Of a stretch of 29,963 nucleotides of DNA, positions 1-26,327 are shown piece by piece. The notes beneath the pieces are model-generated. The model was not told where the DNA came from, made no database searches, and was given only the letters and a program-made list of their open reading frames with translations. Numbering within the stretch: the stretch's first letter is position 1; each line of letters begins with the position of its first letter. This DNA is from an uncultured Planctomycetia bacterium (GTDB taxonomy: Bacteria; Omnitrophota; Gorgyraeia; Gorgyraeales; Gorgyraeaceae): NCBI GenBank assembly GCA_964489855.1, contig CAZBAQ010000001.1, positions 1-29,963 of the forward strand. Reading direction: 5' to 3'. Both the position numbers and the translations under genes were made by a program.

Positions 1-70
1 GAATATCAATAAGGCCACCCTATCGTCTCCCCTGCTCACCAAAGGCTAATTTCTATTAGTAAATAGAGAA

Positions 71-1060
71 ATGAAAAAAATAGAGCACGAGGACGCGCTT
101 TCGAACATGTTTAAAACAGAATCTTTTTTAACCGTCCCTATTGTAGTAAAGGATACGCCTGCAGGGTTTATACTTATGGGCAACGTGTCCAGCTATACTA
201 AAATCACAGAAGGCGATGCAGAGCTTCTTTCGGTACTGGCCAGCCAGATAGGAACAGCCATTGAAAATTCTCAGCTCTACACGGAGCTTTTCAACTCTCA
301 CCAGGACCTGGAGAGGCGTGTAACGGAAAGGACCGCGGAACTGGCAAGGCTCAACCAAGAACTGCAGCACATGAACAAGGTAAAATCAGACTTTGTGTCT
401 GCTGTCTCGCATGAATTAAGGACACCTCTGACATCCATTAAGGGTTACGCCTCTATCCTCATGACAGGTAAATTAGGGGAGGTCCTGCCCGCTCAGAAAG
501 AACGCCTTGAAAAAATAGATAAACATTCCAACAGTCTCACCCGTCTTGTAAACAATCTCCTGGATATAGCAAGAATAGAATCCGGCAGGGTACAGATGGA
601 CATAAGAGAGATATCAATAAAAGAAACCTTGGGCTCCATCGCAGACCTTATCTCGCCTCAAATTAAAGAAAAAAATATATCTTTAAAAATAAGCATCAAG
701 ACAAAATCCGACAAGATAAGGGCTGACTCGAGTCAGTTGGAAAGGGTTTTTGTCAATATCGTAGGGAATGCCGTAAAATTTACTCCTGAAAAAGGAAAAA
801 TATTTATATCCTGTCAGGATAAAAAAGATTCTGTAGAATTCAGCGTTGAAGACACCGGTATAGGGATACCAAAAGGCGACGTGGACAAGGTGTTTCAAGA
901 GTTTTTCCGCTCAGATAACGCGTTGGATCAAAAAGTAAAAGGCACAGGACTGGGGCTTTCTCTTGTAAAAAAAATAATAGAGGCGCATAAAGGAAAGATA
1001 TGGGTCGAAAGTGAGCTGGGAAAAGGAGCTAAATTCACTTTCACAATACCCAAATCATAA
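71..1060 (+). CDS. Sensor histidine kinase (partial GAF + HisKA + HATPase_c); the true gene may start upstream of the window
   Basis: H-box VSHELRTPLTSI, N-box NIVGNAVKF, G1 DTGIGIP, G2 GTGLGL. The N-terminus looks like the second half of a GAF domain (FLTVPIVVKDTPAGFILMG). The same frame is open from 2-46 and is interrupted by TAA at 47-49. Confidence 0.9.
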   Translation: MKKIEHEDALSNMFKTESFLTVPIVVKDTPAGFILMGNVSSYTKITEGDAELLSVLASQIGTAIENSQLYTELFNSHQDLERRVTERTAELARLNQELQHMNKVKSDFVSAVSHELRTPLTSIKGYASILMTGKLGEVLPAQKERLEKIDKHSNSLTRLVNNLLDIARIESGRVQMDIREISIKETLGSIADLISPQIKEKNISLKISIKTKSDKIRADSSQLERVFVNIVGNAVKFTPEKGKIFISCQDKKDSVEFSVEDTGIGIPKGDVDKVFQEFFRSDNALDQKVKGTGLGLSLVKKIIEAHKGKIWVESELGKGAKFTFTIPKS

Positions 1061-1077
1061 TACAAGGAGCTGCGGAG

Positions 1078-2010
1078 ATGATGAAGGAAAAGATACTGAT
1101 AGTGGACGATGATTCAGACATTCTAGATGTCTTGAGAATAACTCTCGAGGCCGAAGGCTACGAGGTCATAGAAGGCCATGATGGGAAAGAGGCCCTGGAT
1201 ATTATAAAGAAAACCTCTCCTGATTTACTGATAACGGATTTTAAAATGCCGAAGATGTGCGGTGATGAGGTCTGCAGGATATTAAAAGAAGATATCCTGG
1301 TACAGCATATGCCGATAATCATGCTTACAGGTAAAGGCGAGGTCACTGATAAGGTCCACGGCATAAACGCGGGCGCGGACGACTACATGGTAAAACCGTT
1401 TGAGCCGCAGGAACTGGTGGCGCGCGTTAAAATGGTGCTGCGCAGGTCTGCCAGGGACCTGGATGCCAATCCGTTGACGCGGCTCCCGGGCAATGTCTCT
1501 ATCCTGAACGAGATACAGGGCCGCATAGACAGAAAAGAAATATTTTCAGTCTGCTACATCGACCTTGATAAATTCAAAGCCTTTAATGACAAATATGGTT
1601 TTAAACAGGGTGACGAGGTCATAAAAAATACCGCCAGGATCCTGATAAGCACTGTTCATGAAAAAGGGACTACCCAGGATTTCATAGGGCATATAGGCGG
1701 GGATGATTTTGTGATTGTGACAATACCTGATGAGGTTGACGGTTTATGCAAAAGCGTTATATCCAAATTTGATCTGATGGGGCCTGAGCTATACAATGAA
1801 GAAGACAAGAAAAAAGGCTACATAGTAGGAAAAGACAGGCAGGGCAAGATTAAAAAAATCCAATTTATTTCTATTTCAATAGCTGTAGTAAGCAACAAAA
1901 AGAAAAAGATAAAACACGTGGCTGAAATCGGCGAGATAGGCGCGGAACTAAAAGAATACGCCAAGAGTCTCAAGGGCTCTAATTACGTAACAGAACGAAG
2001 GAAGAAATAA
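1078..2010 (+). CDS. Response regulator with REC domain and GGDEF-like (GGDDF) diguanylate cyclase domain
   Basis: REC motifs ILIVDDD, LITD, IMLT, KPF; cyclase motifs NPLTRLPGN, YIDLDKFKAFNDKYG, GHIGGDDF. Confidence 0.9.
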   Translation: MMKEKILIVDDDSDILDVLRITLEAEGYEVIEGHDGKEALDIIKKTSPDLLITDFKMPKMCGDEVCRILKEDILVQHMPIIMLTGKGEVTDKVHGINAGADDYMVKPFEPQELVARVKMVLRRSARDLDANPLTRLPGNVSILNEIQGRIDRKEIFSVCYIDLDKFKAFNDKYGFKQGDEVIKNTARILISTVHEKGTTQDFIGHIGGDDFVIVTIPDEVDGLCKSVISKFDLMGPELYNEEDKKKGYIVGKDRQGKIKKIQFISISIAVVSNKKKKIKHVAEIGEIGAELKEYAKSLKGSNYVTERRKK

Positions 2011-2070
2011 ACCCTACCTAATCTACATCAGACTTTGCACATTCCACAAACGTGTCGGCTTAACTGAATA

Positions 2071-2153
2071 TGGTGCGCGGGGAGGGACTCGAACCCTCAA
2101 GCCAAAGGCATACGCCCCTCAAACGTACGTGTCTGCCATTCCACCACCCGCGC
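2071..2153 (-). tRNA. tRNA-Leu (anticodon GAG), CCA encoded
   Basis: Minus strand GCGCGGG...CCCGCGC-A-CCA acceptor stem, anticodon arm TACGT-TTGAGGG-GCGTA, class II variable arm, T-arm GAGGG-TTCGAGT-CCCTC. Confidence 0.97.
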
Positions 2154-2165
2154 ATGAAATCTATC

Positions 2166-2249
2166 TGGCTGCGCTAAGCTGTATAACCTATAATTCTATC
2201 TCTTAACACAAGCAAGCCTATTATATAGAACATAGCGCCAAATATCAAG
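2166..2249 (-). repeat. Cassette distal end ('L2' arm), copy 1; degenerate direct repeat of 3491-3573
   Basis: Shared blocks with near-identical spacing (plus strand): TG(G/A)CTGCGCTAAGCTGT, +15 nt ATCTCTTA, +13/14 nt ATTATA, +15 nt AATATCAAG. Confidence 0.85.
2220..2248 (-). promoter_or_regulatory. Sigma70-type promoter facing tRNA-Leu
   Basis: Minus strand TTGATA (2248-2243), 17 nt, TATAAT (2225-2220); same hexamers and spacing at 3544-3572. Confidence 0.8.
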
Positions 2250-2271
2250 TATAACAGGATGTCCTTTTCGA

Positions 2272-3324
2272 TCAATCGACCATCTTGTAATAAGCACCTC
2301 TGCCTTTACCTACAAGTTTGATTAACTTAGAATCAACAAGCTTTGAGATTTCTTTAAGTATAGCCTGACGCGAAATCTTAAACATCACGCGCAAGTCTTT
2401 ATTGGCGATTTTTCCTTTTTCTTTTATTTTCTCCAGGATTTGTATCTGTTTTTTGGTTAACTCTATTTGTCCGGCTATGTCAGCATCTCTAGTAATCCCA
2501 AGTTTAATAATAACCTCTTTGACTTTATCTATCGAATAAAGAACCCCGTCACTAAAATACTCAAGCCATTTTGTAATGTCTCCTTTTGAATCTTGAACTG
2601 TCTTTAAAGCGGAATAATAGTTCTGCCGGTCGCTATCATAATAGTCATCAAGGGCAAAAAATCGCCTATGATCAAAACCGCTTTTATAAAGCGCGAGGCT
2701 CGCTAAAAACCTGGCAACTCTGCCATTACCGTCTATAAAAGGATGAATCCGCGCAATTTCGTAATGAATGATCCCGGCTGAAATTACAGGATTTATATCT
2801 TTAATTTTACCCGAGTTGAGCCATGCCAGGAATCCCTCAATAAGCCTTGGTACTTCTTGAGTTTTCGGCAGCATATATTCGACAACCTCCTTAAATTGTG
2901 TTCCGTCAAATATCCTTTTGCCGACAAATACCTGTCTATCCCTTAAAGCGCCGCAATCCTTCTCGTCTTTGAGGGTGCCTTTTGTAATTGTTTTATGGAT
3001 AGATAAAATAAGTTTGATATCCGGCTTTCTTGTAGCATATTTTGGAATGGCATCAAGCGCTTCCAGATAGTTTAAAACTTCCTGTTTATCTTTGACTGAG
3101 GCAACAACCTCTTTATGCTCACTAAGAGCTTTAACCTGTTCCAAAGTAAGTTTATTACCTTCGATGCTTGTTGAAGAATGCGCATTGTGGATGCGGGCTT
3201 CTTTTTTAAAACCCATCTCCCACTTTGGGATAAGACTGGCATGCTTTATAATCTCTCTCTCGGTCATTATCCGGGAGATATTATTAAGAATTTTATCTGT
3301 AATAGTGTATATTGGTTTCAGCAT
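2272..3324 (-). CDS. Fic-domain protein with N-terminal inhibitory motif and C-terminal winged HTH
   Basis: Fic signature HPFIDGNGRVAR; inhibitory (S/T)xxxE(G/N) motif in SSTSIEGN; C-terminal wHTH-like segment (ANKDLRVMFKISRQAILKEISKLVDSKLIKLVGKGRGAYY). Confidence 0.92.
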   Translation of the reverse strand: MLKPIYTITDKILNNISRIMTEREIIKHASLIPKWEMGFKKEARIHNAHSSTSIEGNKLTLEQVKALSEHKEVVASVKDKQEVLNYLEALDAIPKYATRKPDIKLILSIHKTITKGTLKDEKDCGALRDRQVFVGKRIFDGTQFKEVVEYMLPKTQEVPRLIEGFLAWLNSGKIKDINPVISAGIIHYEIARIHPFIDGNGRVARFLASLALYKSGFDHRRFFALDDYYDSDRQNYYSALKTVQDSKGDITKWLEYFSDGVLYSIDKVKEVIIKLGITRDADIAGQIELTKKQIQILEKIKEKGKIANKDLRVMFKISRQAILKEISKLVDSKLIKLVGKGRGAYYKMVD

Positions 3325-3330
3325 GGTTCT

Positions 3331-3372
3331 ATTATAACAAATGACAACATAAATGACAACTAAAATGACAAC
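3331..3372 (-). promoter_or_regulatory. fic promoter (probably leaderless) overlapped by three 10-bp direct repeats
   Basis: Minus strand TTGTCA (3359-3354), 17 nt, TATAAT (3336-3331), 6 nt, ATG with no Shine-Dalgarno; AAATGACAAC at 3339, 3351 and 3363 (12-bp period). Confidence 0.75.
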
Positions 3373-3382
3373 CGGAAAGAAA

Positions 3383-3492
3383 AAAATAACACCCTAACCC
3401 TTTGACACATAAAGAGATAAAAAATACCCTGACTAGCATTGCCAATCAGGGTTAATCTTATCTCTCCATCTGGAATTTGAGAGATTACTGTG
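3383..3492 (-). repeat. Cassette proximal end ('R1' arm), copy 1; 110-bp direct repeat of 5418-5527
   Basis: Hand alignment gives about 8 substitutions and a compensating 1-nt indel pair over 110 bp; the junction-proximal 35 bp are identical (3458-3492 = 5493-5527). Confidence 0.95.
3417..3452 (-). terminator. Intrinsic terminator in R1 copy 1
   Basis: Minus strand ACCCTGATTGGC-AAT-GCTAGTCAGGGT followed by ATTTTTTAT; the two stem changes relative to copy 2 both give G-U pairs on this strand. Confidence 0.85.
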
Positions 3493-3573
3493 ACTGCGCT
3501 AAGCTGTCACAGTGTTAAGAGCATCTCTTACTTTACAGTCCTTATTATAGTAAGAAATTTCGAGAATATCAAG
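3491..3573 (-). repeat. Cassette distal end ('L2' arm), copy 2, including promoter TTGATA-17-TATAAT (3572-3544)
   Basis: Same conserved blocks and spacing as 2166-2249. Confidence 0.85.
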
Positions 3574-3709
3574 AGAATAGAACGATTTAGAGATAAAGTT
3601 ATCGTGGTTTTCGCGATATCCGTCATATTATCCGATTAAATACGATCGATTAAATAGTGGGCATTTTAGAGATAGAGAGATAGATTGCGCTGTAGTAATA
3701 TATAGGTCT

Positions 3710-3746
3710 GAGATTGTTTCGGTCGACTTCGTCGGCCTCCAATGAC
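3710..3746. repeat. REP-like palindromic element
   Basis: GAGATTG...GGTCGAC-TTC-GTCGGCC...CAATGAC; central hairpin at 3721-3737; resembles from memory a widespread GAGATTGC...CAATGAC intergenic repeat. Confidence 0.45.
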
Positions 3747-3922
3747 AAGTTTTAAAAGATCGTTCTAAACCTTTGACTTTACAAGACATAGGTAAGACCC
3801 ACTTACATTTCTGTAATTGGGCCTTACCTTTTATCTCGAACTTACCCACTCCGTAATCTCTATTCTCACAGCGGGTTAGAACACATCGAAAATGTGTGAA
3901 GGAATCTAAAACAAAGGGCTGG

Positions 3923-4972
3923 TTATTTATTCAAATATAATGTCTGAGTGGGATAAGCAAACTCGATGTCCCTGGCTCCGAATTCCTTCTTGATGGCAAA
4001 ATTGATCTCCTGTTGAATATCCATATATTTATTATAATCCCTGCTCATAACATAATAGACAACTTCAAATACCAGGCTAAAATCTCCATAGGAAAAAAAG
4101 TGCGCGCGGTCAAAGGTTGTATCCTTAACACCCTTGATAATCTTTTCAATTATCCCGGGCATGACTTTTAACTGCTCAAGAGAAGTCTGATACGTAACGC
4201 CAAGTTTAAAAACAACTCTTCTTTTTCCCATCCTTTTATAGTTGCGCACCCGGGAGCTGGTAAGGTCGGTATTAGAAAGGATCACTTGCTCTCCGCCAAG
4301 GCTGCGGATTCGAGTAGTCTTAATTCCAATATGTTCAATCGTACCCAAATATTCATCTAATATAATAAAATCTCCAACTTCAAATGGACGGTCAAATAAT
4401 ATACAAAAATAACTAAATAAGTCTCCTAATATTGCCTGAGCTGCTAAAGCTATGGCTATGCCTCCAATGCCTAAGCCGGCAATAATAGCTGATATTTTGA
4501 ATCCCAGGTTGTCTAAAAACACAACAATCGCCAAGGCCCATACAGCAACCCTGAGCACTGCTAAAATTCCCGTTAGACTGCGATCCGATGTTACGTCTTT
4601 ACCTCTCTTTGTAAAATAAAGATTAAATCCGTAACCCATAAGAGATAAGGCTAAGCGCGCTGCAAATACCATAAGAATTGCCATCCCTATAATATCAATG
4701 ATCTTATTTAAGAGAGAATGTAAACTCAAAGTATTTACACTCAAATAGAAGGCGCCAAAATAGGCTAAAGGCAAAATCAGTCTTTGAATAATCCTGAGAA
4801 GAAAATCATCAATGGTGGTAGCAGTCTTTTCTGCCCATTTTTTTAAGCTCCTGAGAATAAAATGCTGAAAAATCTTAATCATGCCAAAAGCCGTTAAAAA
4901 TAGGCCAACAAATATCAGATAATCAGCAATGCGGTTTCCTAAATAGACCCTTTCGATAATACCCTGAAACAT
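3923..4972 (-). CDS. mscS: Small-conductance mechanosensitive channel (MscS family)
   Basis: N-terminal TM helices, GLGIGGIAIALAAQ pore helix, DRPFEVGDFI, GTIEHIGIKTTRIRS, V..N..K motifs; SD AGGAGG upstream. Confidence 0.93.
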   Translation of the reverse strand: MFQGIIERVYLGNRIADYLIFVGLFLTAFGMIKIFQHFILRSLKKWAEKTATTIDDFLLRIIQRLILPLAYFGAFYLSVNTLSLHSLLNKIIDIIGMAILMVFAARLALSLMGYGFNLYFTKRGKDVTSDRSLTGILAVLRVAVWALAIVVFLDNLGFKISAIIAGLGIGGIAIALAAQAILGDLFSYFCILFDRPFEVGDFIILDEYLGTIEHIGIKTTRIRSLGGEQVILSNTDLTSSRVRNYKRMGKRRVVFKLGVTYQTSLEQLKVMPGIIEKIIKGVKDTTFDRAHFFSYGDFSLVFEVVYYVMSRDYNKYMDIQQEINFAIKKEFGARDIEFAYPTQTLYLNK

Positions 4973-5053
4973 CTTTTATCCTCCTATTTCTGCCTCTTTT
5001 GAAAAGACTGGCGGAGAAGTAAGAAATTCTACCGAGTGTGCCCTCTTATAAAC

Positions 5054-5082
5054 ATGCTACGACACAACTCTTTTATTGTCAA
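5054..5082 (-). promoter_or_regulatory. Sigma70-type promoter of mscS
   Basis: Minus strand TTGACA (5082-5077), 17 nt, TAGCAT (5059-5054). Confidence 0.6.
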
Positions 5083-5417
5083 GAATTACAGATTATAACT
5101 TTTCAATATAAGAATAAGAAATTTATATCCTTCCCTTCATGGCTCTATCCCATATTCTTGCGGCAATAGATATGATCTCTTTTTCCCGCTCCTTTAGAGA
5201 AAGTTTAGAGCTCGGTTTAAACCTACCAAATTCCCAGTTAATGCCTAAAATATCACTCAAATTATTCGAAATACAGACGATAATGCCATTAACTAGCAAG
5301 CATTAACTACGAGGCGATTCCGAGATAAAGAGATAGGCTAGCGAGATTTATCCGACTATTTTAGACGAACCTAGGGGAAAATAACATTACAAGATCCAAA
5401 ACAAATAATTGCTGCAG

Positions 5418-5527
5418 AAAATAATGCCCTAACCCTTTGACACCCAAAGACATAAAAAATACCCTGATTAGCATCGCTAATCAGGGCTTAATTTATCTCT
5501 CCATCTGGAATTTGAGAGATTACTGTG
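5418..5527 (-). repeat. Cassette proximal end ('R1' arm), copy 2, abutting the tRNA-Gln CCA
   Basis: Direct repeat of 3383-3492. Confidence 0.95.
5452..5487 (-). terminator. Intrinsic terminator downstream of tRNA-Gln (R1 copy 2)
   Basis: Minus strand CCCTGATTAGC-GAT-GCTAATCAGGG perfect 11-bp stem followed by TATTTTTTAT. Confidence 0.88.
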
Positions 5528-5599
5528 GCTGGAGGAGATGGATTCGAACCATCACGACGAGTTCCAGAGACTCGCATCCTACCATTAGATGATCCTCCA
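5526..5599 (-). tRNA. tRNA-Gln (anticodon CTG), CCA encoded
   Basis: TGGAGGA/TCCTCCA-G-CCA acceptor stem, anticodon arm CGAGT-CTCTGGA-ACTCG, T-arm GATGG-TTCGAAT-CCATC. Confidence 0.97.
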
Positions 5600-5618
5600 A
5601 TCCCTTAAGATTGTCAAC

Positions 5619-5981
5619 TTAATCAGATGCTGATTTGTGCTGTTTTATTTCATTGTCAATGTATATCTTGAGCCGTTTCTGGTCTCCTGGATTAACCTCT
5701 ATAAAGTTTACTCCTATCTCAAATGTCTTTGTGCGCATATCAGCCAGATCCCTGATCCAGACCACCTCTCCTTTTACAAATATAGGCAAGGAATCAAAGG
5801 GTGTCTGAAGCTGGATATTAAGCCTTGTGCCTTTTGAAAGACGCTCATACACTACAAATGAAAGACCGCTCTCGCTTACATTATTACCAACAATCTGATC
5901 ATTGGTAAACGGTTCTTCAAGTGTCTTATAATTTACGACAACCGGCCATTCAATCCTTACGAATTTTCTCTTTTCTTGCAT
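5619..5981 (-). CDS. PilZ domain protein
   Basis: RxxxR (EKRKFVR) and (D/N)xSxxG (NVSESG) motifs, GEVVW, IGVNF. Confidence 0.85.
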   Translation of the reverse strand: MQEKRKFVRIEWPVVVNYKTLEEPFTNDQIVGNNVSESGLSFVVYERLSKGTRLNIQLQTPFDSLPIFVKGEVVWIRDLADMRTKTFEIGVNFIEVNPGDQKRLKIYIDNEIKQHKSASD

Positions 5982-7246
5982 GATAGGACCTCTTCCAACC
6001 GCTTTATTGTCTTCTCTTTGCCCAGAAGCGCCAGGACCTCGAATATGCCGGCTGAAACGCTTTTGCCTGTAACAGCGACCCTGAGAGGATGAATCAAATC
6101 CCCTCCTTGTATATTCAGTTCTTTCAGGAGCGCACGCATAGATGTCTCGATATTTGCAGGTGTAAATTCGTCTATCTTCTCTAAGCGTTCTTTGGCTAGT
6201 TTTAGTATACCTAAAACCCCGTCTTTTTTCAAAAACTTTTCCACTGCCTCTTCCCTGTAAACCACTTCATCCAGTATAAATATATCCACCTCATCCTTAA
6301 ATTCAAGGAGGGTCTTTACCCTGGGGTGATAAAGTTCAGCGATTTTCTTAAACCACTGCGCGTCATATTCGCCTTTAACAAAAGGTTTAACCTCTTTTAC
6401 GAAGCTGTCCAAACTCATTTTTCTTATGTGCTCGCCGTTCAGCCAGCGGAGCTTGTCCTCATTAAACTCAGCCCCGCGTTTATTGACACGCTTCAAACTG
6501 AATTTCTTTATTATATAGGGCGTCTCCATAAATTCTTTATTGTCTCCTGGCGCCCACCCCAAAAGCGCGAGATAATTCACCATTGCCTCTGCAAGATAGC
6601 CTTTCTCGCGATATTCAGAAATCGCCACTGCGCCGAATCTTTTTGAAAGACGGGATTTATCGGGAGCGAGTATCAGCGGTATGTGCGCGAATTTTGGCGG
6701 TTTTACGCCAAGCGCGTTATATAAAGCAATCTGCTTATTTGTATTGGAGATATGATCGTCTCCCCTTATAATATGCGATATCTTCATATCAATATCGTCG
6801 ATGACACAGGCAAAATTATAAGCAGGGGTCTTATCTGATTTTATCAGAACCAGTTCCCCTATAAGAGAATTGTCCACTTCTATCTCGCCGTGTACAATGT
6901 CATATATCTTTATCTTTTCAACCGGGACCTTAAAAATAATCGCGTCTCCGTCTTTATACGCCAGGTCCTGCTTGACCAATTTATCCGCGTATGAAAGATA
7001 TATATCCAGGCGTTTGCTCTGAAAATACGGGCCCTCATCACACTTTAAACCTAACCATTCAAGGCTCGAAAGGATCTCTTTTAGATACACATCGCTTGAA
7101 CGTTTCCTGTCCGTATCTTCTATCCTCAGGATAAACTTGCCTGCCTGCGTCCTTGCGTAAAGCCAGTTAAAAAGCGCTGTGCGGGCGCTTCCTATGTGCA
7201 GATTGCCTGTTGGACTTGGGGCAAATCTAACGCGAACCATATTCAT
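5957..7246 (-). CDS. gltX: Glutamate-tRNA ligase (compact form)
   Basis: RFAPSPTGNLHIGS, ILRIEDTD, HIIRGDDH, RLSKR, LRVAVTG anticodon-binding domain. Confidence 0.96.
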   Translation of the reverse strand: MNMVRVRFAPSPTGNLHIGSARTALFNWLYARTQAGKFILRIEDTDRKRSSDVYLKEILSSLEWLGLKCDEGPYFQSKRLDIYLSYADKLVKQDLAYKDGDAIIFKVPVEKIKIYDIVHGEIEVDNSLIGELVLIKSDKTPAYNFACVIDDIDMKISHIIRGDDHISNTNKQIALYNALGVKPPKFAHIPLILAPDKSRLSKRFGAVAISEYREKGYLAEAMVNYLALLGWAPGDNKEFMETPYIIKKFSLKRVNKRGAEFNEDKLRWLNGEHIRKMSLDSFVKEVKPFVKGEYDAQWFKKIAELYHPRVKTLLEFKDEVDIFILDEVVYREEAVEKFLKKDGVLGILKLAKERLEKIDEFTPANIETSMRALLKELNIQGGDLIHPLRVAVTGKSVSAGIFEVLALLGKEKTIKRLEEVLSCKKRENS

Positions 7247-7766
7247 ATCCTTCCATTATCGCCTTTTCATTTATGGCAATCATATTGTGGTGATGACGTG
7301 GGATCACATCCTTTAAAGACTGGATCAGGAATTCTATCGGCAATAGATCTTTTCTTGCTAAAAGCGCGCCGAGCATGATCATATTGCCAACACGGGGATT
7401 TCCTAACTTCAGGGCCATATCTGTAGCCGGGATCTTCAAAATATCTATATCGCTTCTTTTAGTTTCAATCTCTGCCAGGGACTTATTTATAATCAGCGTG
7501 CCGCCGGGTCTGATCTTTGGTTCGAACTTTTTAAGAGATGGCTTATTCATCACAATGCATATGCCTGGCTCCTTTACAACAGGGGACGCAATAGGGGTAT
7601 CTGAAATGACCACCATGGAATGCGCGGTCCCACCCCTTACCTCTGCGCCATACGAAGGCATCCACGTAACGTTCTTACCTTCATTCATGGCAGCATAAGA
7701 AAGGGTCTTTCCCATAAGCATTATACCCTGGCCGCCAAACCCTGCGAAAATAATCTCTTCTTTCAC
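7227..7766 (-). CDS. 2-oxoacid:ferredoxin oxidoreductase gamma subunit (start moved to GTG 7766)
   Basis: IIFAGFGGQG, PSYGAEVRGG, NMIMLG; the GTG overlaps the upstream TGA (GTGA). Confidence 0.9.
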   Translation of the reverse strand: MKEEIIFAGFGGQGIMLMGKTLSYAAMNEGKNVTWMPSYGAEVRGGTAHSMVVISDTPIASPVVKEPGICIVMNKPSLKKFEPKIRPGGTLIINKSLAEIETKRSDIDILKIPATDMALKLGNPRVGNMIMLGALLARKDLLPIEFLIQSLKDVIPRHHHNMIAINEKAIMEGYEYGSR

Positions 7767-8491
7767 CGAAAAACCCCCAATGGATATTCTTTTATCATGG
7801 TCTCGGCTACCCACTTGACCGAATCTTCAGGCGAAAGCCCGATATATGTGGGACACTGCGAAAGCACCTCGACAATGGAAAAACCCGCGCCATCGATCTG
7901 ATTCTGAAACGCCTTTTTTATTGCCTTCTTTGCCTTTAAAATATTCTGAGGAGAATGGATCGAAACCCTCTCTGCATATGAAACACCTGGCAATACTGAC
8001 AAAAGCTCGCACACCTTTAGAGGAAAGCCGTGTCTTTTCTGGTCCCGGCCCAGAGGCGTAGTAGAGGTCTTCTGTTTCAACATTGTCGTTGGCGCCATCT
8101 GGCCGCCTGTCATGCCATAGACCGCGTTATTGACAAATATAATGCTTATATTCTCTCCTCTATTAGCGGCGTGCACTATCTCTGCAGTGCCTATTGCTGC
8201 CAGATCTCCATCGCCCTGATACCCAAATACAATATTCTCGGGTGCCACCCTTTTTATACCTGTTGCAACTGCCGGCACCCTGCCATGCGCTGCCTCCGTG
8301 ACATCAAAATTCCAATAGTCATACGCAATGACCGCGCAGCCAACAGGCGCAATACCTATGGTCTTCTCCCTTATGCCCAGTTCATCTATTATCTCACAGA
8401 TAAGGCGATGGACTATGCCGTGCCCGCATCCAGCGCAGTAGTGTGTAGGTGCGTCTTTCATGCTTTCTGGTTTTTCAAAAATCTTTTTCAT
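7763..8491 (-). CDS. 2-oxoacid:ferredoxin oxidoreductase beta (TPP-binding) subunit
   Basis: YCAGCGHG, PVGC, GDGDLAAIG, NNAVYGMTGGQ, S.CPT. Confidence 0.92.
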   Translation of the reverse strand: MKKIFEKPESMKDAPTHYCAGCGHGIVHRLICEIIDELGIREKTIGIAPVGCAVIAYDYWNFDVTEAAHGRVPAVATGIKRVAPENIVFGYQGDGDLAAIGTAEIVHAANRGENISIIFVNNAVYGMTGGQMAPTTMLKQKTSTTPLGRDQKRHGFPLKVCELLSVLPGVSYAERVSIHSPQNILKAKKAIKKAFQNQIDGAGFSIVEVLSQCPTYIGLSPEDSVKWVAETMIKEYPLGVFR

Positions 8492-8497
8492 AACAAT

Positions 8498-9583
8498 CTA
8501 GCTGAGAGCTGAAAGCTCATTAACTATCTCATCCTCTGTAGGGACTCCGCCGCCTGAGCGACCGTAAAAATGAACTGGTTTTTTGCACTCTATGCTGAGT
8601 TTGACATCCTCTACCATCTGACCGCAGCTCATCTCTACTACTAAAAATGATTTGACTTTTTCAGCTATCCTTTTTAATTCTTTCTCTGGAAATGGCCACA
8701 GGCTTATTGGCCTGACGAGTCCTATCTTTTTCCCCTCAATGCGTAATTTCTCAACAACGTTCCTTGAGATCCTGCTGGTCGTGCCATACGCCACCACCAT
8801 GAGATCACTGTCATCACCATATAAAATTTCACAGCGGACTTCTTTATCTTTAATCTCAGCGTATTTCTTCTGCAGCTTCCTGTTAAACATCTCCAGGCTC
8901 CCATCTTCCAGCAAAAGCGACCGGATCTTTCTCGGCTCTCTGCCCTTACATCCATCCAAAACCCATTCTTTTCTTATTTGGGATTTGGGATTTGGGATTT
9001 GGGATTTAAGTTCTACTGGCTCCATCATCTGCCCCAGGATACCGTCTCCCAATATCATCACCGGTGTCCTGTATTTATCCGCCAGATCAAACGAAAGCAT
9101 TGTCAGCTCCGCTATCTCCTGTAAAGATGCCGGCGCCAAAACTATCTGATGATAATCACCATGACCTCCGCCTTTTGTCGCCTGAAAATAATCGCTTTGG
9201 CTCGGAGCTATATTGCCAAGGCCTGGTCCTCCCCTCATCATATTTACTATTACCCCGGGAAGCTCGCAGCCTGCAAGATATGATATACCCTCCTGCTTAA
9301 GACTTATGCCAGGACTTGAAGAAGAAGTCATTGCCCTCGTGCCCCTGAGCGACGCGCCAAAGACCATATTTATAGCTGATATCTCGCTCTCTGCCTGGAT
9401 AAATACTCCGCCCACCTCTGGCATGTGCCTCGACATATAAGCCGGCAGTTCATTCTGCGGCGTAATAGGATATCCTGCATAAAACCTGCACCCTGCCATT
9501 ATAGCAGCCTCTGCCAAAATCTCATTACCGCACATCAGAACTTTTTCAGTTTGGATTTTGGAATTTGGAATTTGGAATTTCAT
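8498..9583 (-). CDS. vorB: 2-oxoacid:ferredoxin oxidoreductase alpha subunit (VorB-like); start at ATG 9583
   Basis: MCGNE..AEAAI.AGC, GYPITPQ, QAESE, TSSSSPG, RGGPGLG; the ATG overlaps the upstream TGA (ATGA). Confidence 0.9.
   Translation of the reverse strand: MKFQIPNSKIQTEKVLMCGNEILAEAAIMAGCRFYAGYPITPQNELPAYMSRHMPEVGGVFIQAESEISAINMVFGASLRGTRAMTSSSSPGISLKQEGISYLAGCELPGVIVNMMRGGPGLGNIAPSQSDYFQATKGGGHGDYHQIVLAPASLQEIAELTMLSFDLADKYRTPVMILGDGILGQMMEPVELKSQIPNPKSQIRKEWVLDGCKGREPRKIRSLLLEDGSLEMFNRKLQKKYAEIKDKEVRCEILYGDDSDLMVVAYGTTSRISRNVVEKLRIEGKKIGLVRPISLWPFPEKELKRIAEKVKSFLVVEMSCGQMVEDVKLSIECKKPVHFYGRSGGGVPTEDEIVNELSALS
8976..9007. repeat. Heptamer tandem repeat (TTTGGGA)x4 inside vorB
   Basis: Four perfect units at 8977-9004 plus TTT; encodes KSQIPNPKSQI. 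Confidence 0.95.
9550..9580. repeat. Heptamer tandem repeat (TTTGGAW)x4 directly after the vorB start codon
   Basis: TTTGGAT TTTGGAA TTTGGAA TTTGGAA TTT; encodes KFQIPNSKIQ. Confidence 0.93.
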
Positions 9584-9786
9584 CTGTATACCTCTATACA
9601 CATATCAGGACATACGATCGCGCAAAAAGAACATCCCGTGCACTTCTTATCTTTATCCAAAAATAAAACCGGATGTATGCCTCTTTTATTAATAAAATCC
9701 TCTGATACAATACACCCCTTCGGGCAATATACCACGCAGAGCCTGCAGCCTTTGCATCTTTCTTTATTGATCTCTATTTTCGGCAT
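9580..9786 (-). CDS. 2x[4Fe-4S] ferredoxin-like delta subunit (start ATG 9786)
   Basis: CKGCRLCVVYCP and CTGCSFCAIVCP motifs. Confidence 0.92.
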   Translation of the reverse strand: MPKIEINKERCKGCRLCVVYCPKGCIVSEDFINKRGIHPVLFLDKDKKCTGCSFCAIVCPDMCIEVYR

Positions 9787-11681
9787 GATAATATAGTGTC
9801 TCTTATCTTTTCTGCTGACAGACCACACTTATCAAGCAGGATCTCTCTTTTTCCATGCTCGATAAATCTATCCGGAAGCCCTATAGTCTTTATTGTAGCA
9901 CTTTTCGGCACCTTATCAATAATAGATTCCAGAACAAAAGAACCAAATCCGCCGCAGGCCACGCCTTCCTCTACCGTAAAGAGCTTTCCTGTCTTGGAAA
10001 CCGACTCCAATATGAGCTCCAGATCTAATGGCTTGATGAACCTTGCGTTTATAACTTCACAATCCACACCTTCGTTTAAAAGCAGTTCTGCTGTCTTTAA
10101 AGAAACCGGAGCCATATAGCCCAAGCTCAATATCGTTGCGTCCTTGCCTTCCTTTAGAATTTCTGCTTTACCTAAAGAAATAGGAAGACTGGTCGTGGTC
10201 GAGGCGAAACCTCGACCAGTTTGTGGTCGAGGTTTCGCCTCGACCAAAGGATAACTCCTGCCGCGAGGATATCTCATTGCAATCGGACCCTTATTATAAG
10301 AAAGCGCGAATCTAAACATCTCCTTGAATTCCTCTTCATCCTTCGGAGCCATGACTATCATATTCGGCATATGTCTTAAATACGCGATATCAAATACCCC
10401 GTGATGCGTAGGCCCATCTTCTCCCACAATGCCTGCGCGGTCCAGCATAAATGTCACGTTGAGGTTCTGGAGACAAACGTCGTGTATTATCTGGTCGTAA
10501 GAACGCTGCAAGAATGTGGAATATATTGCCACGACTGGCTTCAGGCCAGCCCTTGCCAGGCCTGCGGCAAAACCTACTGCGTGCTGCTCTGCCATTCCAA
10601 CATCAAAAAATCTATCGGGAAAGACCTTTGCAAATCTATCCAGGCCTGTGCCTTCAGGCATGGCAGCTGTTATGGCCACGATCCTTTTATCCTTTTCCGC
10701 AGCGTCAATAACCCCCTCGCTAAACACGCTTGTAAAATCCTTCTGCAAGGACACCTTCTCGCCTGTCTCAACATTAAATGAACCCACGCCGTGGAATTTC
10801 TCAGGTATTTTTTCCGCGTAAGAATAGCCCTTGCCTTTTTTTGTGACAAGGTGCAGCAAAACTGGCGAATCCATATCAATGATGTTTTTCAATGTGGAGA
10901 CTACTGAGCGTATATCATGACCATCTATGGGACCAAAATACTTGAACCCTAATTCTTCAAAAAGCATACCAGGAACCAAAAGATTCTTAAGTCCTTCTTC
11001 TAGGCGCCTGGCTGAACGTATTATCCTGAAACCAAAACGCGGCACGCGCTTTAAAAGACCTTCTATGTCCTTCCTGATCCTATTGTAAATAGGCGCGCTT
11101 ATGATCCTGTTCAGGTATTTACTTAAGGCGCCCACGCTCCTGGATATACTCATCTCGTTGTCGTTGAGTATGACAAGTATTTTTTTGCGAAGATGCCCGG
11201 CATGGTTAAGTGCCTCGAATGCCATGCCTCCGCCTAAAGACGCATCGCCTATGACAGCGATTACCCTGTGTAATTTTCCTTCCAGGTCTCTTGCGGCAGC
11301 CATACCCAATGCAGTAGAAATAGAGGTGGACCCATGACCTGTTGTAAATACATCAAATTCGCTTTCAAATCTATTGGGAAAACCGCTCAGGCCGCCCAGC
11401 TGGCGCAGCGTAGAAAACCTGTCTTTTCTGCCGGTCAACAACTTATGCGCGTACGTCTGATGACCCACATCCCATATGATAATGTCTTCGGGCGCGTTCA
11501 AAGAATAATGCATCCCCAATATGAGTTCCACGGCCCCAAGGCTTGACGCAAGATGTCCGCCTGAAGAAGAAACTGTTTTTACAATAGTCTCTCTTATCTC
11601 CTGCGCCAGGCCAGACAATTCATCCATGCTCAGTTTTTTTAAATCAGAAGGGTGATTTATTTTTTCTAATAATCCCGGCAT
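9774..11681 (-). CDS. dxs: 1-deoxy-D-xylulose-5-phosphate synthase, with an in-frame palindrome insertion
   Basis: GGHLASSLG, DVGHQ.Y.HK, IGDASL, LNDNEMSIS, GEDGPTHHG, RYPRG. Confidence 0.97.
   Translation of the reverse strand: MPGLLEKINHPSDLKKLSMDELSGLAQEIRETIVKTVSSSGGHLASSLGAVELILGMHYSLNAPEDIIIWDVGHQTYAHKLLTGRKDRFSTLRQLGGLSGFPNRFESEFDVFTTGHGSTSISTALGMAAARDLEGKLHRVIAVIGDASLGGGMAFEALNHAGHLRKKILVILNDNEMSISRSVGALSKYLNRIISAPIYNRIRKDIEGLLKRVPRFGFRIIRSARRLEEGLKNLLVPGMLFEELGFKYFGPIDGHDIRSVVSTLKNIIDMDSPVLLHLVTKKGKGYSYAEKIPEKFHGVGSFNVETGEKVSLQKDFTSVFSEGVIDAAEKDKRIVAITAAMPEGTGLDRFAKVFPDRFFDVGMAEQHAVGFAAGLARAGLKPVVAIYSTFLQRSYDQIIHDVCLQNLNVTFMLDRAGIVGEDGPTHHGVFDIAYLRHMPNMIVMAPKDEEEFKEMFRFALSYNKGPIAMRYPRGRSYPLVEAKPRPQTGRGFASTTTSLPISLGKAEILKEGKDATILSLGYMAPVSLKTAELLLNEGVDCEVINARFIKPLDLELILESVSKTGKLFTVEEGVACGGFGSFVLESIIDKVPKSATIKTIGLPDRFIEHGKREILLDKCGLSAEKIRDTILSCRK
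10196..10246. repeat. Inverted doublet of a 23-bp palindrome, in-frame within dxs (51 bp)
   Basis: TGGTCGAGG-CGAAA-CCTCGACCA, GTTTG, TGGTCGAGG-TTTCG-CCTCGACCA. Confidence 0.95.
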
Positions 11682-11682
11682 A

Positions 11683-12483
11683 TTAAGATCTTCTCTCTAA
11701 AATTAAATCCGCGATCCCTGAAAGCCTGTTGGCGTTATTCCCGAAAATACTGAGATGCGACTTCGCCCTTTTGTTCAGGAGTTCTGCCATTTTCCTCACG
11801 TGTTCTTTCCCGTATACCCTGACGTAGCCATCCTTATCGATCAAATCATCTATGAGCTGGAACGTAAAACCAATGTGTCTGCCAAAATCATTGATCGCGT
11901 CTATCTTTTTTTTGCCAGCGCCTTTAAACACGCATCCTGCCTTTAAGGCCGCCTCGAAAAGCGCGCCTGTCTTCTTAGCCGCAATATAATCCAGATCTCT
12001 TTTTTTCTTATTTGCCCCCTCCATATCTACGACCTGGCCGCCTATAGTGCCGCGGCTGCCTACTGCCATAGAGATATCCCTGAGGATGTCCAGATTGCCC
12101 GCGCCTGAAAGCAGCTCGAACCCCATGGTGAGAAGCGCATCGCCTGCTAAAAGCGCTATTTCCTCGTTGAATTTTTTATGACAACTGGCCCTGCCCCGCC
12201 TGTAGTCATCATTGTCCATACACGGAAGGTCATCATGTATAAGCGTATATGTATGTATGAGTTCTATGGCGCACGCGATTGGCACGATCGAAGCGCCCTT
12301 GCCCCCGCACGCCTCAAAACTCGCGATGGTCATGACAGGCCTTATCCTTTTGCCGCCTGAAAATACTGCGTACCGCATTGCCCTGTGGATAGATTCTGGC
12401 TTTTCTTTTGTCGGCGGCAAACACCTATCCAGCGCTTTATCAATGACCTTCTTCTTGTTTGCAATATATTTTTTTATATCCAT
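11683..12483 (-). CDS. ispA: Polyprenyl (farnesyl/geranyl) diphosphate synthase (start ATG 12483)
   Basis: GGKRIRP, LIHDDLPCMDNDDYRRG, KTGALF, FQLIDD; xseB-ispA-dxs synteny. Confidence 0.92.
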   Translation of the reverse strand: MDIKKYIANKKKVIDKALDRCLPPTKEKPESIHRAMRYAVFSGGKRIRPVMTIASFEACGGKGASIVPIACAIELIHTYTLIHDDLPCMDNDDYRRGRASCHKKFNEEIALLAGDALLTMGFELLSGAGNLDILRDISMAVGSRGTIGGQVVDMEGANKKKRDLDYIAAKKTGALFEAALKAGCVFKGAGKKKIDAINDFGRHIGFTFQLIDDLIDKDGYVRVYGKEHVRKMAELLNKRAKSHLSIFGNNANRLSGIADLILERRS

Positions 12484-12500
12484 ATCCTTGTGACTCTGCC

Positions 12501-12523
12501 TGTTCAAGGCTAAGCCTTGAACA
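12501..12523. repeat. 23-bp palindrome, single copy between xseB and ispA
   Basis: TGTTCAAGGC-TAA-GCCTTGAACA, identical to 23433-23455. Confidence 0.95.
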
Positions 12524-12533
12524 GCTAAGACTG

Positions 12534-12755
12534 CTATTCTTTGAAAGGTTCAAGTTCTATCTTGTCGCCCTTTTTAACAAGTATCTCGACCTTGCGTTTC
12601 GTCTCATCCAGGCGTTTTCTGCAAAGACGCAGGAGCTTCACACCTTCTTCGTATTTCTTCAATGACTCGTCAAGCGGCATCTGACCGGTTTCCAGATCAT
12701 CTGCGATCGCTTCCAGCTTATTCATCATATCTTCAAATTTTAATTCCTTTGCCAT
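12534..12755 (-). CDS. xseB: Exodeoxyribonuclease VII small subunit
   Basis: FE..M.KLE.I...LE.G.M.LDESL..YEEG pattern. Confidence 0.95.
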   Translation of the reverse strand: MAKELKFEDMMNKLEAIADDLETGQMPLDESLKKYEEGVKLLRLCRKRLDETKRKVEILVKKGDKIELEPFKE

Positions 12756-12766
12756 AATAGCCCCCT

Positions 12767-13927
12767 TTATTCGATCTCCTCCACCCTGCTCTTAAAACTT
12801 CCTTTTGAAAGCCTTGTCTCGACCATATCTCCTTTTTTAAGGATCTTCGTATCCTTGAGCACTTTTTTCTCAGGCAGCTTGAAATTAATGCTGTATCCCC
12901 TGCCTAAAATACCCAAAGGACTCAATATCCCTATCTTCTCAGAGATAGATTTAAAATTTTCCTCTTTTAATTCAATATAATGTTTGAATCGCAGACTCAG
13001 ACCCTGTTCTACATCATCGAGACGCTGCTCGTACTGTTTTATAATGTCCAGGGGATAATCCTTGAGCCTTTTTTCAATATTGTCCAGTTTATCGACTAGC
13101 TCGCTCTTTTTCGCAATGACCCTCTCTGCGGCAACAGACGGCGTTGGCGCCCTTAAATCCGCTACAAAATCGCTGATCGTCCAATCTATCTCATGACCCA
13201 CTGCGCTTATAATAGGTAGTTTTGAGTTGTGTATTGCCCGCGCCACTACCTCTTCATTAAATGCCCATAAATCCTCCAGGCTCCCGCCGCCCCTCCCGAT
13301 TATTATCACGTCCACATTGCCGAGCTTATTAAACTCGTCTATTGCCCTCGCTATCTCTTCCTTTGCGCCTTCGCCCTGAACCTTTACAGGATTTATAATG
13401 ACCTCGACGTTCGAAAATCTTCTGTTCAAAACATGAAGCATATCTCTGATCGCCGCGCCTGTTGGAGAAGTGACTATGCCGATCCTGTCCGGAAGCATCG
13501 GTATCGCAGCCTTTCTAGAATCATCAAAAAGTCCTTCCTTAAAAAGTTTTTCCTTTAATTGTTCAAACGCGAGCTGTAACGCGCCCACGCCCTTTGGCTC
13601 CATCCTTGATATATTCAGCTGATACTGGCCGCGTTTTTCATACACGCCTACCCTGCCAAAACATAACGCCTGCATGCCGTCTTTTATCTCAAACTTTACC
13701 TTCTCATTGTATCCTTTAAAAAATGTACATTTTAATTCGCCTCTCTCGTCTTTTAATGTAAAATAAAAATGACCTGAGGAGTGGGCAACGAAATTCGATA
13801 TCTCTCCCTCCACCCACACGGTTGGAAAAGCTGATTCCAGGACCAGCTTTATACCAGCGGTCAACTCGCTTACCTTGTATATGTATCTTTCCTTTTTACT
13901 GGTGGCTGTATCAGGAGTGGTCTTCAA
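12767..13927 (-). CDS. xseA: Exodeoxyribonuclease VII large subunit
   Basis: WVEGEISNF, SGHFYFTLKD, GIVTSPTGAAIRD, GRGGGSLEDLWAFNEE, SAVGHE.D, APTPS. Confidence 0.96.
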   Translation of the reverse strand: MKTTPDTATSKKERYIYKVSELTAGIKLVLESAFPTVWVEGEISNFVAHSSGHFYFTLKDERGELKCTFFKGYNEKVKFEIKDGMQALCFGRVGVYEKRGQYQLNISRMEPKGVGALQLAFEQLKEKLFKEGLFDDSRKAAIPMLPDRIGIVTSPTGAAIRDMLHVLNRRFSNVEVIINPVKVQGEGAKEEIARAIDEFNKLGNVDVIIIGRGGGSLEDLWAFNEEVVARAIHNSKLPIISAVGHEIDWTISDFVADLRAPTPSVAAERVIAKKSELVDKLDNIEKRLKDYPLDIIKQYEQRLDDVEQGLSLRFKHYIELKEENFKSISEKIGILSPLGILGRGYSINFKLPEKKVLKDTKILKKGDMVETRLSKGSFKSRVEEIE

Positions 13928-14705
13928 GTCTCTCTCTCACCCTTTCTATAGATAATGCCTTCCCGGTCTTTTCATCTATCTCGACTATAGCACCATGGAG
14001 TTCGACGTCCCTATCCGCCATTTCAAATTTCCTCGGCATACACGTGAGAAAATGTTCTATTACAGGTTCTACCTTCCGGCCTATGACTGAATCATGAGGT
14101 CCTGTCATTCCGAGGTCCGTTATATACGCGCTTCCCTGCGGCAATATCTTTTCATCAGCTGTCTGGACATGCGTATGCGTCCCGAATACGACACTCGCCT
14201 TGCCGTCAAGGAATCTACCCAGCGCGATCTTTTCACTCGTGGCCTCTGCATGCATATCGACCAGGATTATCTTCGTATCCTTATGGACCATCTGTATCTC
14301 TTTTTCCGCGGTCTTGAACGGGCACGCATCAATATGACCCATGAATACCCTTCCGACGACATTTATTACAGCTACCTTTTTACCTGAACTTGATTTAACG
14401 ATGGTCGTGCCTGTACCGGGACATTCTTTTGGATAATTTGCCGGCCGCAAGATCCTTTTGTCTTTATCCAGTCTCTCGTATATCTCTTTTTTCTTCCAGA
14501 TATGGTCTCCCGAGGTCACCACATCTACCTGTCCCTCAAAGAGTTCATCCACTGTCTCGTTTGTAAGGCCTGAACCGCCGGCGATATTCTCAGCATTGGC
14601 CACCACGAAATCTATGCACCTGTCCCTCCGAAGGCCTGGCACTATTTTTTTAATAGCTGTCCGACCCGGACGGCCGACTATGTCACCTATTAACAATACT
14701 CTCAT
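13911..14705 (-). CDS. ymdB: YmdB-like metallophosphoesterase (TIGR00282 type)
   Basis: IGDIVGRPG, NAEN.AGG, SGDHIW, DMHAEATSEK, GTHTHVQTAD; lies directly downstream of rny. Confidence 0.92.
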   Translation of the reverse strand: MRVLLIGDIVGRPGRTAIKKIVPGLRRDRCIDFVVANAENIAGGSGLTNETVDELFEGQVDVVTSGDHIWKKKEIYERLDKDKRILRPANYPKECPGTGTTIVKSSSGKKVAVINVVGRVFMGHIDACPFKTAEKEIQMVHKDTKIILVDMHAEATSEKIALGRFLDGKASVVFGTHTHVQTADEKILPQGSAYITDLGMTGPHDSVIGRKVEPVIEHFLTCMPRKFEMADRDVELHGAIVEIDEKTGKALSIERVRERLEDHS

Positions 14706-14723
14706 AAAACTCCAGTTTATGCA

Positions 14724-16295
14724 CTATTTTGCATACTCGACTGCCCTCGTCTCCCGAATAACCGTTACCTTTATCTGCCCAGGATACTCGAGCCCCTCTT
14801 CTATTTTCTTGCTTATCTCCCGCGCAAGGCCTATTGCCTGAAGATCCGTGACCTTGTCAGGCTGTATTATCACGCGTATCTCCCTGCCGGCCTGTATTGC
14901 GTACGCCTTTTCAACTCCCTTGAAAGAATCGGCTATTGATTCCAGTTTCTCCAGACGTTTTATATAATTCTCGAGCGTCTCCCTGCGAGCGCCAGGCCTG
15001 GACGCGCTAACTGCGTCAGCAGCCTGTAAAAGCACGGCATAGATAGAAGTCGCCTCTTCTTCCTCGTGGTGAGAAGCTATCGCGCTCACGACATCTTTGG
15101 ACTCGCCGTATTTCTTTGCAAGGTCCGCGCCTATCCTTGCGTGCGGGCCTTCGACCTCATGCGTTACTGCCTTTCCTATATCATGCAAAAGCCCGACGCG
15201 CTTTGCCAGGTTGACATCCAGGCCCAGCTCCCCAGCCATAACAGCCATAATAACACTGACCTCTTTCATATGCTGTAATGCATTCTGGCCATAACTGGTC
15301 CTGTACTTTAATCTGCCTATAAGCTTTATGATCTCGGGATGCACACGCTGGACACCCAGTTCAAACACAGTATGTTCGCCCTCTTCTTTTATGGTATTGT
15401 CCATTTCATGCTTTACCTTTCCCACGACCTCTTCTATGCGTCCAGGGTGAATGCGGCCGTCCTGCAAAAGCCGCTCGAGCGTTATCTTCGCTATCTCGCG
15501 CTTCACCATGTCAAAACCGGATAATATGACAGCCTCCGGTGTATCGTCGATAATAACGTCTATGCCTGTCGCGATTTCAAGCGCGCGTATATTCCTTCCT
15601 TCCCTGCCTATGATCCTTCCCTTCATCTCATCGTTTGGCAGAGCCACAACAGACACGGTCGTGTTAGTCACGTGTTCTGCGGCGCACTTCTGTATTGCGA
15701 CTGAAAGCACCTCTTTTGCCTTTTTATCAGCGGATTCCCTGGACACGCCAACGATCTGCTGAAAAAGTGTCTGCGCCTCTTTTTGCGCATCATCCTCTAT
15801 CCTGCGTAAAAACAATTTCTTTGCCTCTTCAACGCTAAGACCTGATATCCTCTGGAGCTTCTGACGTTCTTCCGCAACAAGCCTGGAAAGCTCGTTCTGT
15901 CTGGACTCGATAGACTTTTCCTTGTCCACCAGAAGACCTTCTCTTCTCGCGATATCCTTGTCCTTTTTCTCAAGGATATCCATTTTACGCTCTACATTTT
16001 CTTCTTTCTGGCCCAGCTTTTTTTCAAGATCCACGAGATCCTGGCGTTTGTCCTTTGTCTCGTGCTCAAAATCCGTACGCATCCTGAACTTTGAATCCTT
16101 TACCTCGAGTTCGAGCTCCTTCTTTTTATTCTCCAATTCCTTTTTTGACTCTTCGAGAAGCCTCTTTGCGCTCTGTTCGGTCTCCTTCAGATGTTTCTCT
16201 GAAAAAAACTTCCTTATAAAATATCCTGCGAAAAACACCAGGATAAAGACCAGTACTTCGATTACAGAGATTATCGTCTTAAGATTTTCCTCCAT
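14724..16295 (-). CDS. rny: Ribonuclease Y (start ATG 16295)
   Basis: N-terminal TM and coiled coil, KH motif [15 protein letters not shown] motif LLHDIGKA; SD AGGAGGT 7 nt upstream. Confidence 0.97.
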
Positions 16296-19538: not shown

Positions 19539-19567
19539 ATTATAGCAAAAACTGCCCCTTCCGTCAA
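19539..19567 (-). promoter_or_regulatory. Sigma70-type promoter of the small ORF-ccdA-tlpA unit
   Basis: TTGACG (19567-19562), 17 nt, TATAAT (19544-19539). Confidence 0.8.
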
Positions 19568-19574
19568 CCCCCTC

Positions 19575-19614
19575 TTAAGTTGACAAATCTGACACGTTCA
19601 TTTTGTCAACTTAA
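19575..19614. repeat. 40-bp TTAA-bounded inverted-repeat element, copy 1
   Basis: TTAAGTTGACAAA...TTTGTCAACTTAA; the reverse complement matches 26288-26327 with one mismatch. Confidence 0.93.
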
Positions 19615-19615
19615 G

Positions 19616-23417: not shown

Positions 23418-23432
23418 AAAAACTCTCCTTTT

Positions 23433-23482
23433 TGTTCAAGGCTAAGCCTTGAACAGGTCTGTTCAAGGCTTAGCCTTGAACA
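23433..23482. repeat. Inverted doublet of the 23-bp palindrome; supplies the last codons and stop of glyA
   Basis: TGTTCAAGGC-TAA-GCCTTGAACA, GGTC, TGTTCAAGGC-TTA-GCCTTGAACA. Confidence 0.95.
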
Positions 23483-26287: not shown

Positions 26288-26327
26288 TTAAGTTGACAAA
26301 ATGAACGTGTCGGATTTGTCAACTTAA
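26288..26327. repeat. 40-bp TTAA-bounded inverted-repeat element, copy 2; contains the purE stop
   Basis: TTAAGTTGACAAAATGAACGTGTCGGATTTGTCAACTTAA. Confidence 0.93.

Follow-up and report, generated by a model that had tools for sequence, protein, structure and literature searches.

Predicted stop and restart signals at the ends of an element family inserting at tRNA-Gln in Candidatus Omnitrophota

Introduction

Integrating elements restore the tRNA sequence that they split. To our knowledge, the way in which such elements deal with the genes lying downstream in a tRNA operon has rarely been shown. The window analysed here, a stretch of 29,963 nt, raises this question directly, as two cassettes stand between tRNA-Gln(CTG) and tRNA-Leu(GAG). 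The first-pass annotation proposed that the cassette ends replace the signals that they disrupt, with a terminator in the entry arm (R1) and an outward promoter in the exit arm (L2), so that integration into the operon would be neutral. Here, we examine the two arms across the element family to which these cassettes belong.

Results

Organization of the locus

On the minus strand, which carries all features of this paragraph, the order is gltX, pilZ, tRNA-Gln(CTG), R1, mscS, L2, core, R1, fic, L2, core, 12 nt and tRNA-Leu(GAG). The target gene, tRNA-Gln(CTG) (5526..5599), lies 20 nt past pilZ, closing the gltX-pilZ run, and its terminal CAGCCA (5526..5531) forms the attL-like core of the tRNA-side junction. 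The R1 end of the mscS cassette (5418..5525) comprises a 7-bp inverted repeat (5520-5495), a stem (5487-5461), a U-tract (5460-5453) and a conserved GTGTCAAAGRGTTAGGG block. The cargo, an MscS-family channel gene (3923..4972) with its own promoter-like site (5082-5054), is followed by an L2 end of subtype b (3497..3574) and by an internal, attP-like L2/R1 junction with the core CAGTCA (3491..3496). The R1 end of the second cassette (3383..3490) precedes a gene for a Fic-domain protein (2272..3324) with a weak C-terminal DIP2311-like match and its own promoter, TTGTCA-17-TATAAT, at 3359-3331. The cassette closes with an L2 end of subtype a (2172..2249) and the attR-like distal core CAGCCA (2166..2171), 12 nt before the separated tRNA-Leu(GAG) (2071..2153). 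An Rfam search at the locus matched the two tRNAs and nothing else.

The fic promoter is overlapped by three copies of AAATGACAAC that recur every 12 bp (window 3339-3372), which suggests that this promoter is repressible; they are a possible operator for the C-terminal domain of the Fic protein. Relatives of the mscS cargo (window 3700-5300), 64-65% identical, occur inside other L2/R1 arrays (L037, L095), and one run (X5) yielded many variant contigs of this cargo. On the far side of the array, a gene for a Receiver-GGDEF protein with a GGDDF motif (window 1078-2010) is convergent on tRNA-Leu and is kept there across the family.

The element family and its target

A metagenome scan retrieved 40 further stretches. 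The relatives belong to Candidatus Omnitrophota, and most likely the host does as well. Many genera of the family carry the 84-nt L2 arm at 85-94% identity, often in more than one copy, and the same holds for R1. Positions 2166-2249 are the distal end (L2) of an element family of this phylum whose insertion site is the CAGCCA end of tRNA-Gln.

Autonomous members encode a DUF2924 protein and a large serine recombinase. In the relative G007, the order is tRNA-Gln/R1, a 551-aa large serine recombinase with Resolvase, Recombinase and zinc ribbon domains (PF00239+PF07508+PF13408), DUF2924, metal-efflux cargo and L2/R1; a site-specific recombinase lies within the same ends in G007, G012, L255 and L270. 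All R1-bearing loci examined have the recombinase gene reading towards R1, and in other families the R1-recombinase layout recurs behind Gln, His, Asp, Glu, Asn, Arg and Met tRNAs. An L2 profile and a promoter scan did not locate the distal ends of the His/Asp/Glu/Lys-targeting relatives. The linkage points to the DUF2924-linked serine recombinase as the probable catalyst of insertion. Both window cassettes lack a recombinase and are non-autonomous members of the family. Searches of this genome, which is 83% complete, with PF00239, PF07508, PF11149 and tblastn did not turn up the family recombinase, the PF11149 control having matched nowhere. The three tyrosine recombinases of the genome, which lie on other contigs (one adjoining tRNA-Pro), were dismissed as partners because R1 is linked to a serine recombinase.

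Empty sites are available for comparison. The gap between tRNA-Gln and tRNA-Leu(GAG) measures 1 nt in G009, 72 nt in G003, 102 nt in G014 and 12 nt in G053, with no promoter. The 102-nt spacer of G014 recurs almost unchanged after L2/CAGCCA in the filled site of L256, which places the crossover within the six-base core. Empty and filled sites thus have a common core at the tRNA 3' end, as in a tRNA-3'-end integrative element, and the core tracks its target, being CAACCA in G141, where tRNA-Gln has that ending. Relative to the -35, AGAGAT boxes occupy positions -21, +45, +88 and +108; as they are asymmetric about the core, we rejected a classical symmetric attP of large serine recombinases, which requires inverted arms about the crossover. 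Junctions of the attP-like kind are common in arrays. In four DNA runs, contigs cover the greater part of the array and both of its junctions at 2166 and 3491; none spans the array, and none contains a clear circle, excision joint or empty site.

The three papers found on DUF2924 together with recombinases are Wolbachia studies. A search that fell short of most subscription papers found no paper on the ends of the DUF2924 family, and PMC10083194 mentions neither tRNA nor DUF2924. Other element families with different entry arms occupy the same tRNA-Gln CAGCCA end (L050, L053, L066, L058, L059, L071, L072), some with more distant serine recombinases. This end is a hotspot common to several element families.

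The entry arm resembles an intrinsic terminator

Both R1 arms contain a 12-pair stem (5487-5461 and 3452-3426), each followed by ATTTTTTA and starting 38 nt past the core, so that the first stem base is the 39th past the core, as originally described. The two A>G changes in the 3452 stem form G-U pairs on the sense strand only, again in agreement with the first reading, and this copy folds with -19.0 kcal/mol on the tRNA-sense strand vs -10.7 on the other. Among 25 R1 ends, the stem is 92% paired with two-sided changes in 10 of its 12 pairs, a pattern reached in 0 of 500 shuffles, whereas slid controls were 34-46% paired. The non-Watson-Crick cells comprise 29 G-U vs 3 A-C, and the flanks hold on average 6.1 T after the stem vs 3.9 A before it, the T-run being on the tRNA-sense side. 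R1 thus combines a GC-containing stem, RNA covariation and a U-tract on one strand, the sequence features of an intrinsic terminator, with a predicted transcript end around 5453-5455. The bias towards G-U over A-C and the side of the T-run argue that this putative terminator is under selection as RNA on the tRNA strand, and not chiefly as the terminator of the recombinase gene.

The proposal that R1 replaces a disrupted signal did not hold: in the empty operon, tRNA-Gln is not followed by a terminator, and the element adds one. As tRNA-Leu begins 1 nt after tRNA-Gln in G009, R1 would add polarity rather than restore a lost signal.

The exit arm carries an outward promoter motif

Each L2 arm carries TTGATA-17-TATAAT pointing out of the cassette (2248-2220 and 3572-3544; 11/12 matches each), as had been noted, with a predicted start around 2213 for the distal copy. 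They are two of the three 11/12 minus-strand sites in 1-15000, and two of the five exact occurrences of TTGATA-17-TATAAT in the 1.12-Mb genome; among random 250-nt windows, 0.7% contain an 11/12 site. The observation that hexamers and spacing are kept while the spacer has diverged was borne out, only 4 of 17 spacer positions being common to both copies. The two spacers represent two L2 subtypes, and both subtypes have close relatives elsewhere. Over 26 full-length L2 copies, conservation is 0.99 in the hexamer columns vs 0.80 in the spacer. L2 thus displays -35 and -10 hexamers with a 17-nt gap, conserved above the spacer, as in sigma-70 promoters.

The expectation that other L2 copies would keep the hexamers was largely but not entirely realized. 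When the att arm alone was used to find copies, 16 of the 23 retrieved have exact hexamers, 3 have near matches and 4 have lost a hexamer, as has the copy on contig C87 of this genome. None of the hexamer-losing copies adjoins tRNA-Leu, and loss of a whole hexamer was seen in 5 of 28 internal copies vs 0 of 14 tRNA-Leu-proximal ones, a trend that is not significant (p=0.15). The promoter belongs to every L2 end, those at internal junctions included, where it points at the following terminator some 120 nt on (e.g. 3572-3426). These internal L2/R1 junctions mostly retain it (24 distinct junctions with a -10, many of them retrieved by patterns containing the promoter), and there it cannot serve a host gene.

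Promoter retention beside separated genes

We assembled a set of tRNA-Leu loci selected by the tRNA-Leu 5' end rather than by the motif, and called them separated when tRNA-Gln was not within 250 nt. TTGAT[AG]-17-TATAAT lies upstream of tRNA-Leu in 20 of 23 separated genomes vs 0 of 3 linked ones; the family sample contains only three empty sites. The Fisher p=0.004 is overstated because the genomes are kin and not independent; the 20 promoter-bearing genomes span 8 genera, with 10 of them from one genus. A site of at least 10/12 is found upstream of tRNA-Leu in 21 of the 23 separated genomes, against a background of 6%. Promoters other than L2 are used in three separated genomes.

Only 4 of the 20 promoter-bearing separated genomes have kept an intact att arm, and the distance from the -10 to tRNA-Leu ranges from 10 to 218 nt. 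In the others, whose att arm has decayed, the promoter survives together with the L2 flanks at a distance of 10 to 142 nt from tRNA-Leu, and the deletion ends differ. As the distance varies and the att arm is mostly lost, several separate deletions are implied.

At the second target, where tRNA-Gln(TTG) stands before glmU-prs, a strong promoter is present in 12 of 13 separated vs 0 of 14 linked genomes (11 being from one genus); the motif here is TTGCCA and may have an origin other than L2. The exception is the present genome, which contains a second island of the same family at this position (C219:1066-1168 and C87:4083-4147), between spoVG-tRNA-Gln(TTG) and glmU-prs, with CmoA-like and ICMT-like methyltransferase genes (named by eye) as cargo; the two contigs appear to join within one methyltransferase gene. 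Its R1 has no terminator and its L2 no -35, and the cargo is co-oriented and open to read-through. This joint loss is the co-loss predicted by a coupled stop and restart, in one case.

Discussion

A probable stop and restart for the host operon

We consider it likely that the promoter-terminator pair works as a stop and restart for the host operon. Cassettes insert at the last six bases of tRNA-Gln (CAGCCA), often in tandem and often without a recombinase, leaving the tRNA whole. The R1 terminator would end host transcripts some 70 nt downstream of the tRNA, shielding the cargo and, in autonomous elements, the convergent recombinase gene from host transcription. As both tRNA-Gln targets lie inside operons, with tRNA-Leu(GAG) or glmU-prs downstream, this stop would cut off host genes, which the housekeeping-type L2 promoter would restart. 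In particular, L2 probably keeps the cut-off tRNA gene expressed. After insertion, the host would retain the promoter while the att arm decays, locking in the island. Termination, initiation and a fitness benefit are what we infer here from sequence patterns.

The original version of this idea survives in part: the retention of the promoter for the separated tRNA-Leu and the apparent selection of the terminator on the tRNA strand favour it, but the terminator is an addition to the operon. Similarly, selection on both signals is favoured by the covariation in R1 and by the promoter outlasting att decay, although the presence of the promoter at internal junctions weakens the case.

That presence lends weight to the possibility that the pair evolved for the element itself, producing an RNA of about 120 nt across attP on the circle or tandem junction (for recombination control or as a small RNA), with host rescue as a by-product. 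The two signals are adjacent and in register at every L2/R1 junction, folding of the one at 3538-3415 gives z=-5.6, and the type-a L2 RNA can form an acceptor-stem-like 9-bp stem ending in GCCA. Moreover, the promoter persists in the distant relatives G141 and L221, the latter with an extended -10 form and an end that mimics tRNA-Asn. However, the consensus fold holds the R1 hairpins only, the L2 stem has no two-sided change with 18 of 37 changed cells breaking pairing, and no Rfam family matches. Such an origin also leaves unexplained the att-less remnants that keep only the promoter beside tRNA-Leu. We regard it as unlikely; it is compatible with host rescue. The hexamers could instead be the native promoter of tRNA-Leu, or AT-rich recombinase-binding DNA resembling one, tRNA-Leu being fed by read-through from the cargo. 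In 15 kb of such AT-rich DNA, 31 weak matches are expected, and good conservation extends over most of the L2 arm rather than being confined to the hexamers. As the fic promoter matches at 11/12 and no terminator is predicted from fic to tRNA-Leu, read-through from fic could add to, or replace, L2 transcription of tRNA-Leu in this window. Against a native or protein-binding origin, the motif is absent from empty sites, its place relative to the core is on the element side, truncated copies have the upstream flank of L2, and protein-binding boxes would not outlast the att arm; we find this origin quite improbable.

Least credible, and in our judgement very improbable, is that the promoter is a switch driving the integrase on the excised circle. 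Outward end promoters of this type, ICEclc Pcirc (PMC5812530) and ICEKp1 P3'end (PMC13023037), drive a co-oriented integrase on the circle, and the position and direction of the L2 promoter are the same. Here, the recombinase points towards R1 in all R1 loci examined, so that the promoter would be antisense to it, blocked by the terminator, and could not drive it in sense. Sense transcription of the Pcirc type, which requires a co-oriented integrase, was therefore rejected; at most, the promoter might exert control by antisense read-through.

Beyond the stop and restart itself, a broader picture can be drawn, which we hold to be possible but rather doubtful as a whole. A little-described family of serine recombinases, targeting the CCA ends of many tRNAs, would carry a built-in stop and restart and insert inside essential operons, and the host would become dependent on the promoter, fixing the island. 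The restart RNA may begin with a GCCA-ending, acceptor-stem-like hairpin that takes the place of tRNA-Gln in the precursor; alternatively, it may form an RNA of about 120 nt across attP.

Comparison with known systems

SCCmec/Ccr cassettes resemble the Omnitrophota family in their large serine recombinase, target at a gene 3' end, tandem composites and recombinase-less cassettes; they differ in their rlmH target, 18-bp repeat and CcrAB/C recombinases, and are not known to carry DUF2924. ICEclc and ICEKp1 share tRNA 3'-end integration, an outward distal promoter and, immediately downstream of the tRNA, stem-loops or a terminator. In those elements, however, the integrase is co-oriented with the tRNA, the target tRNA's own terminator is displaced and the core is 15-18 bp long, whereas in the Omnitrophota family the recombinase is convergent, the target is mid-operon and the core is 6 bp. 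In SpyCIM5, mutL is rescued in one strain by a cryptic promoter inside an integrase pseudogene (PMC3430984). There too, an element-borne promoter restores host genes cut off in an operon after element decay, but as a one-off, in contrast to a built-in consensus end promoter kept in 8 genera.

Tycheposons and Islander/TIGER islands (10.1101/2020.12.28.424599; PMC4383910) are likewise cargo elements accumulating at tRNA genes, mostly with tyrosine integrases, att sites of about 40 nt and a displaced tRNA fragment, unlike the serine recombinase and 6-bp core found here. Tyrosine integrases occur in 910 of 937 tycheposons, in a study that does not mention promoters or terminators (10.1101/2020.12.28.424599). 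The 6-bp core and serine recombinase rule out membership among the tycheposons, with their Prochlorococcus-type hallmarks. Outward end promoters and host rescue are thus already known from ICEclc, ICEKp1 and SpyCIM5; the built-in stop and restart proposed here, with a convergent recombinase, is a variant.

The family offers a natural series of sites (empty, intact, att decayed with the promoter kept, both signals lost), which makes the question of the downstream genes testable and suggests a ratchet fixing islands in a streamlined uncultured lineage. Its recombinases are also uncharacterised candidates for study, given the 6-bp core at the CCA end of tRNAs and the asymmetry of the element ends.

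Other repeats and tRNA genes

The window also contains paired palindromic REP-like repeats (GGTCGAGG.. and TGTTCAAGGCTAAGCCTTGAACA) at 10195-10246, 12500-12524 and 23432-23483, and a dispersed AAGTTGACAA..TTGTCAACTT inverted-repeat element at 5604-5632, 19560-19615 and 26288-26342, with more copies on other contigs. In G115 (L142:16580-16900), a Met-like target tRNA ending in CAACCA, with R1 next to it, was missed by ARAGORN and seems to be interrupted by a group I-like intron. Finally, the body of tRNA-Gln(CTG) at gltX-pilZ differs sharply among relatives (..CACAGGGGGCAGCCA vs ..CATCTCCTCCAGCCA; L033:8510-8583, L040:4554-4627), which suggests that the tRNA may have been replaced.
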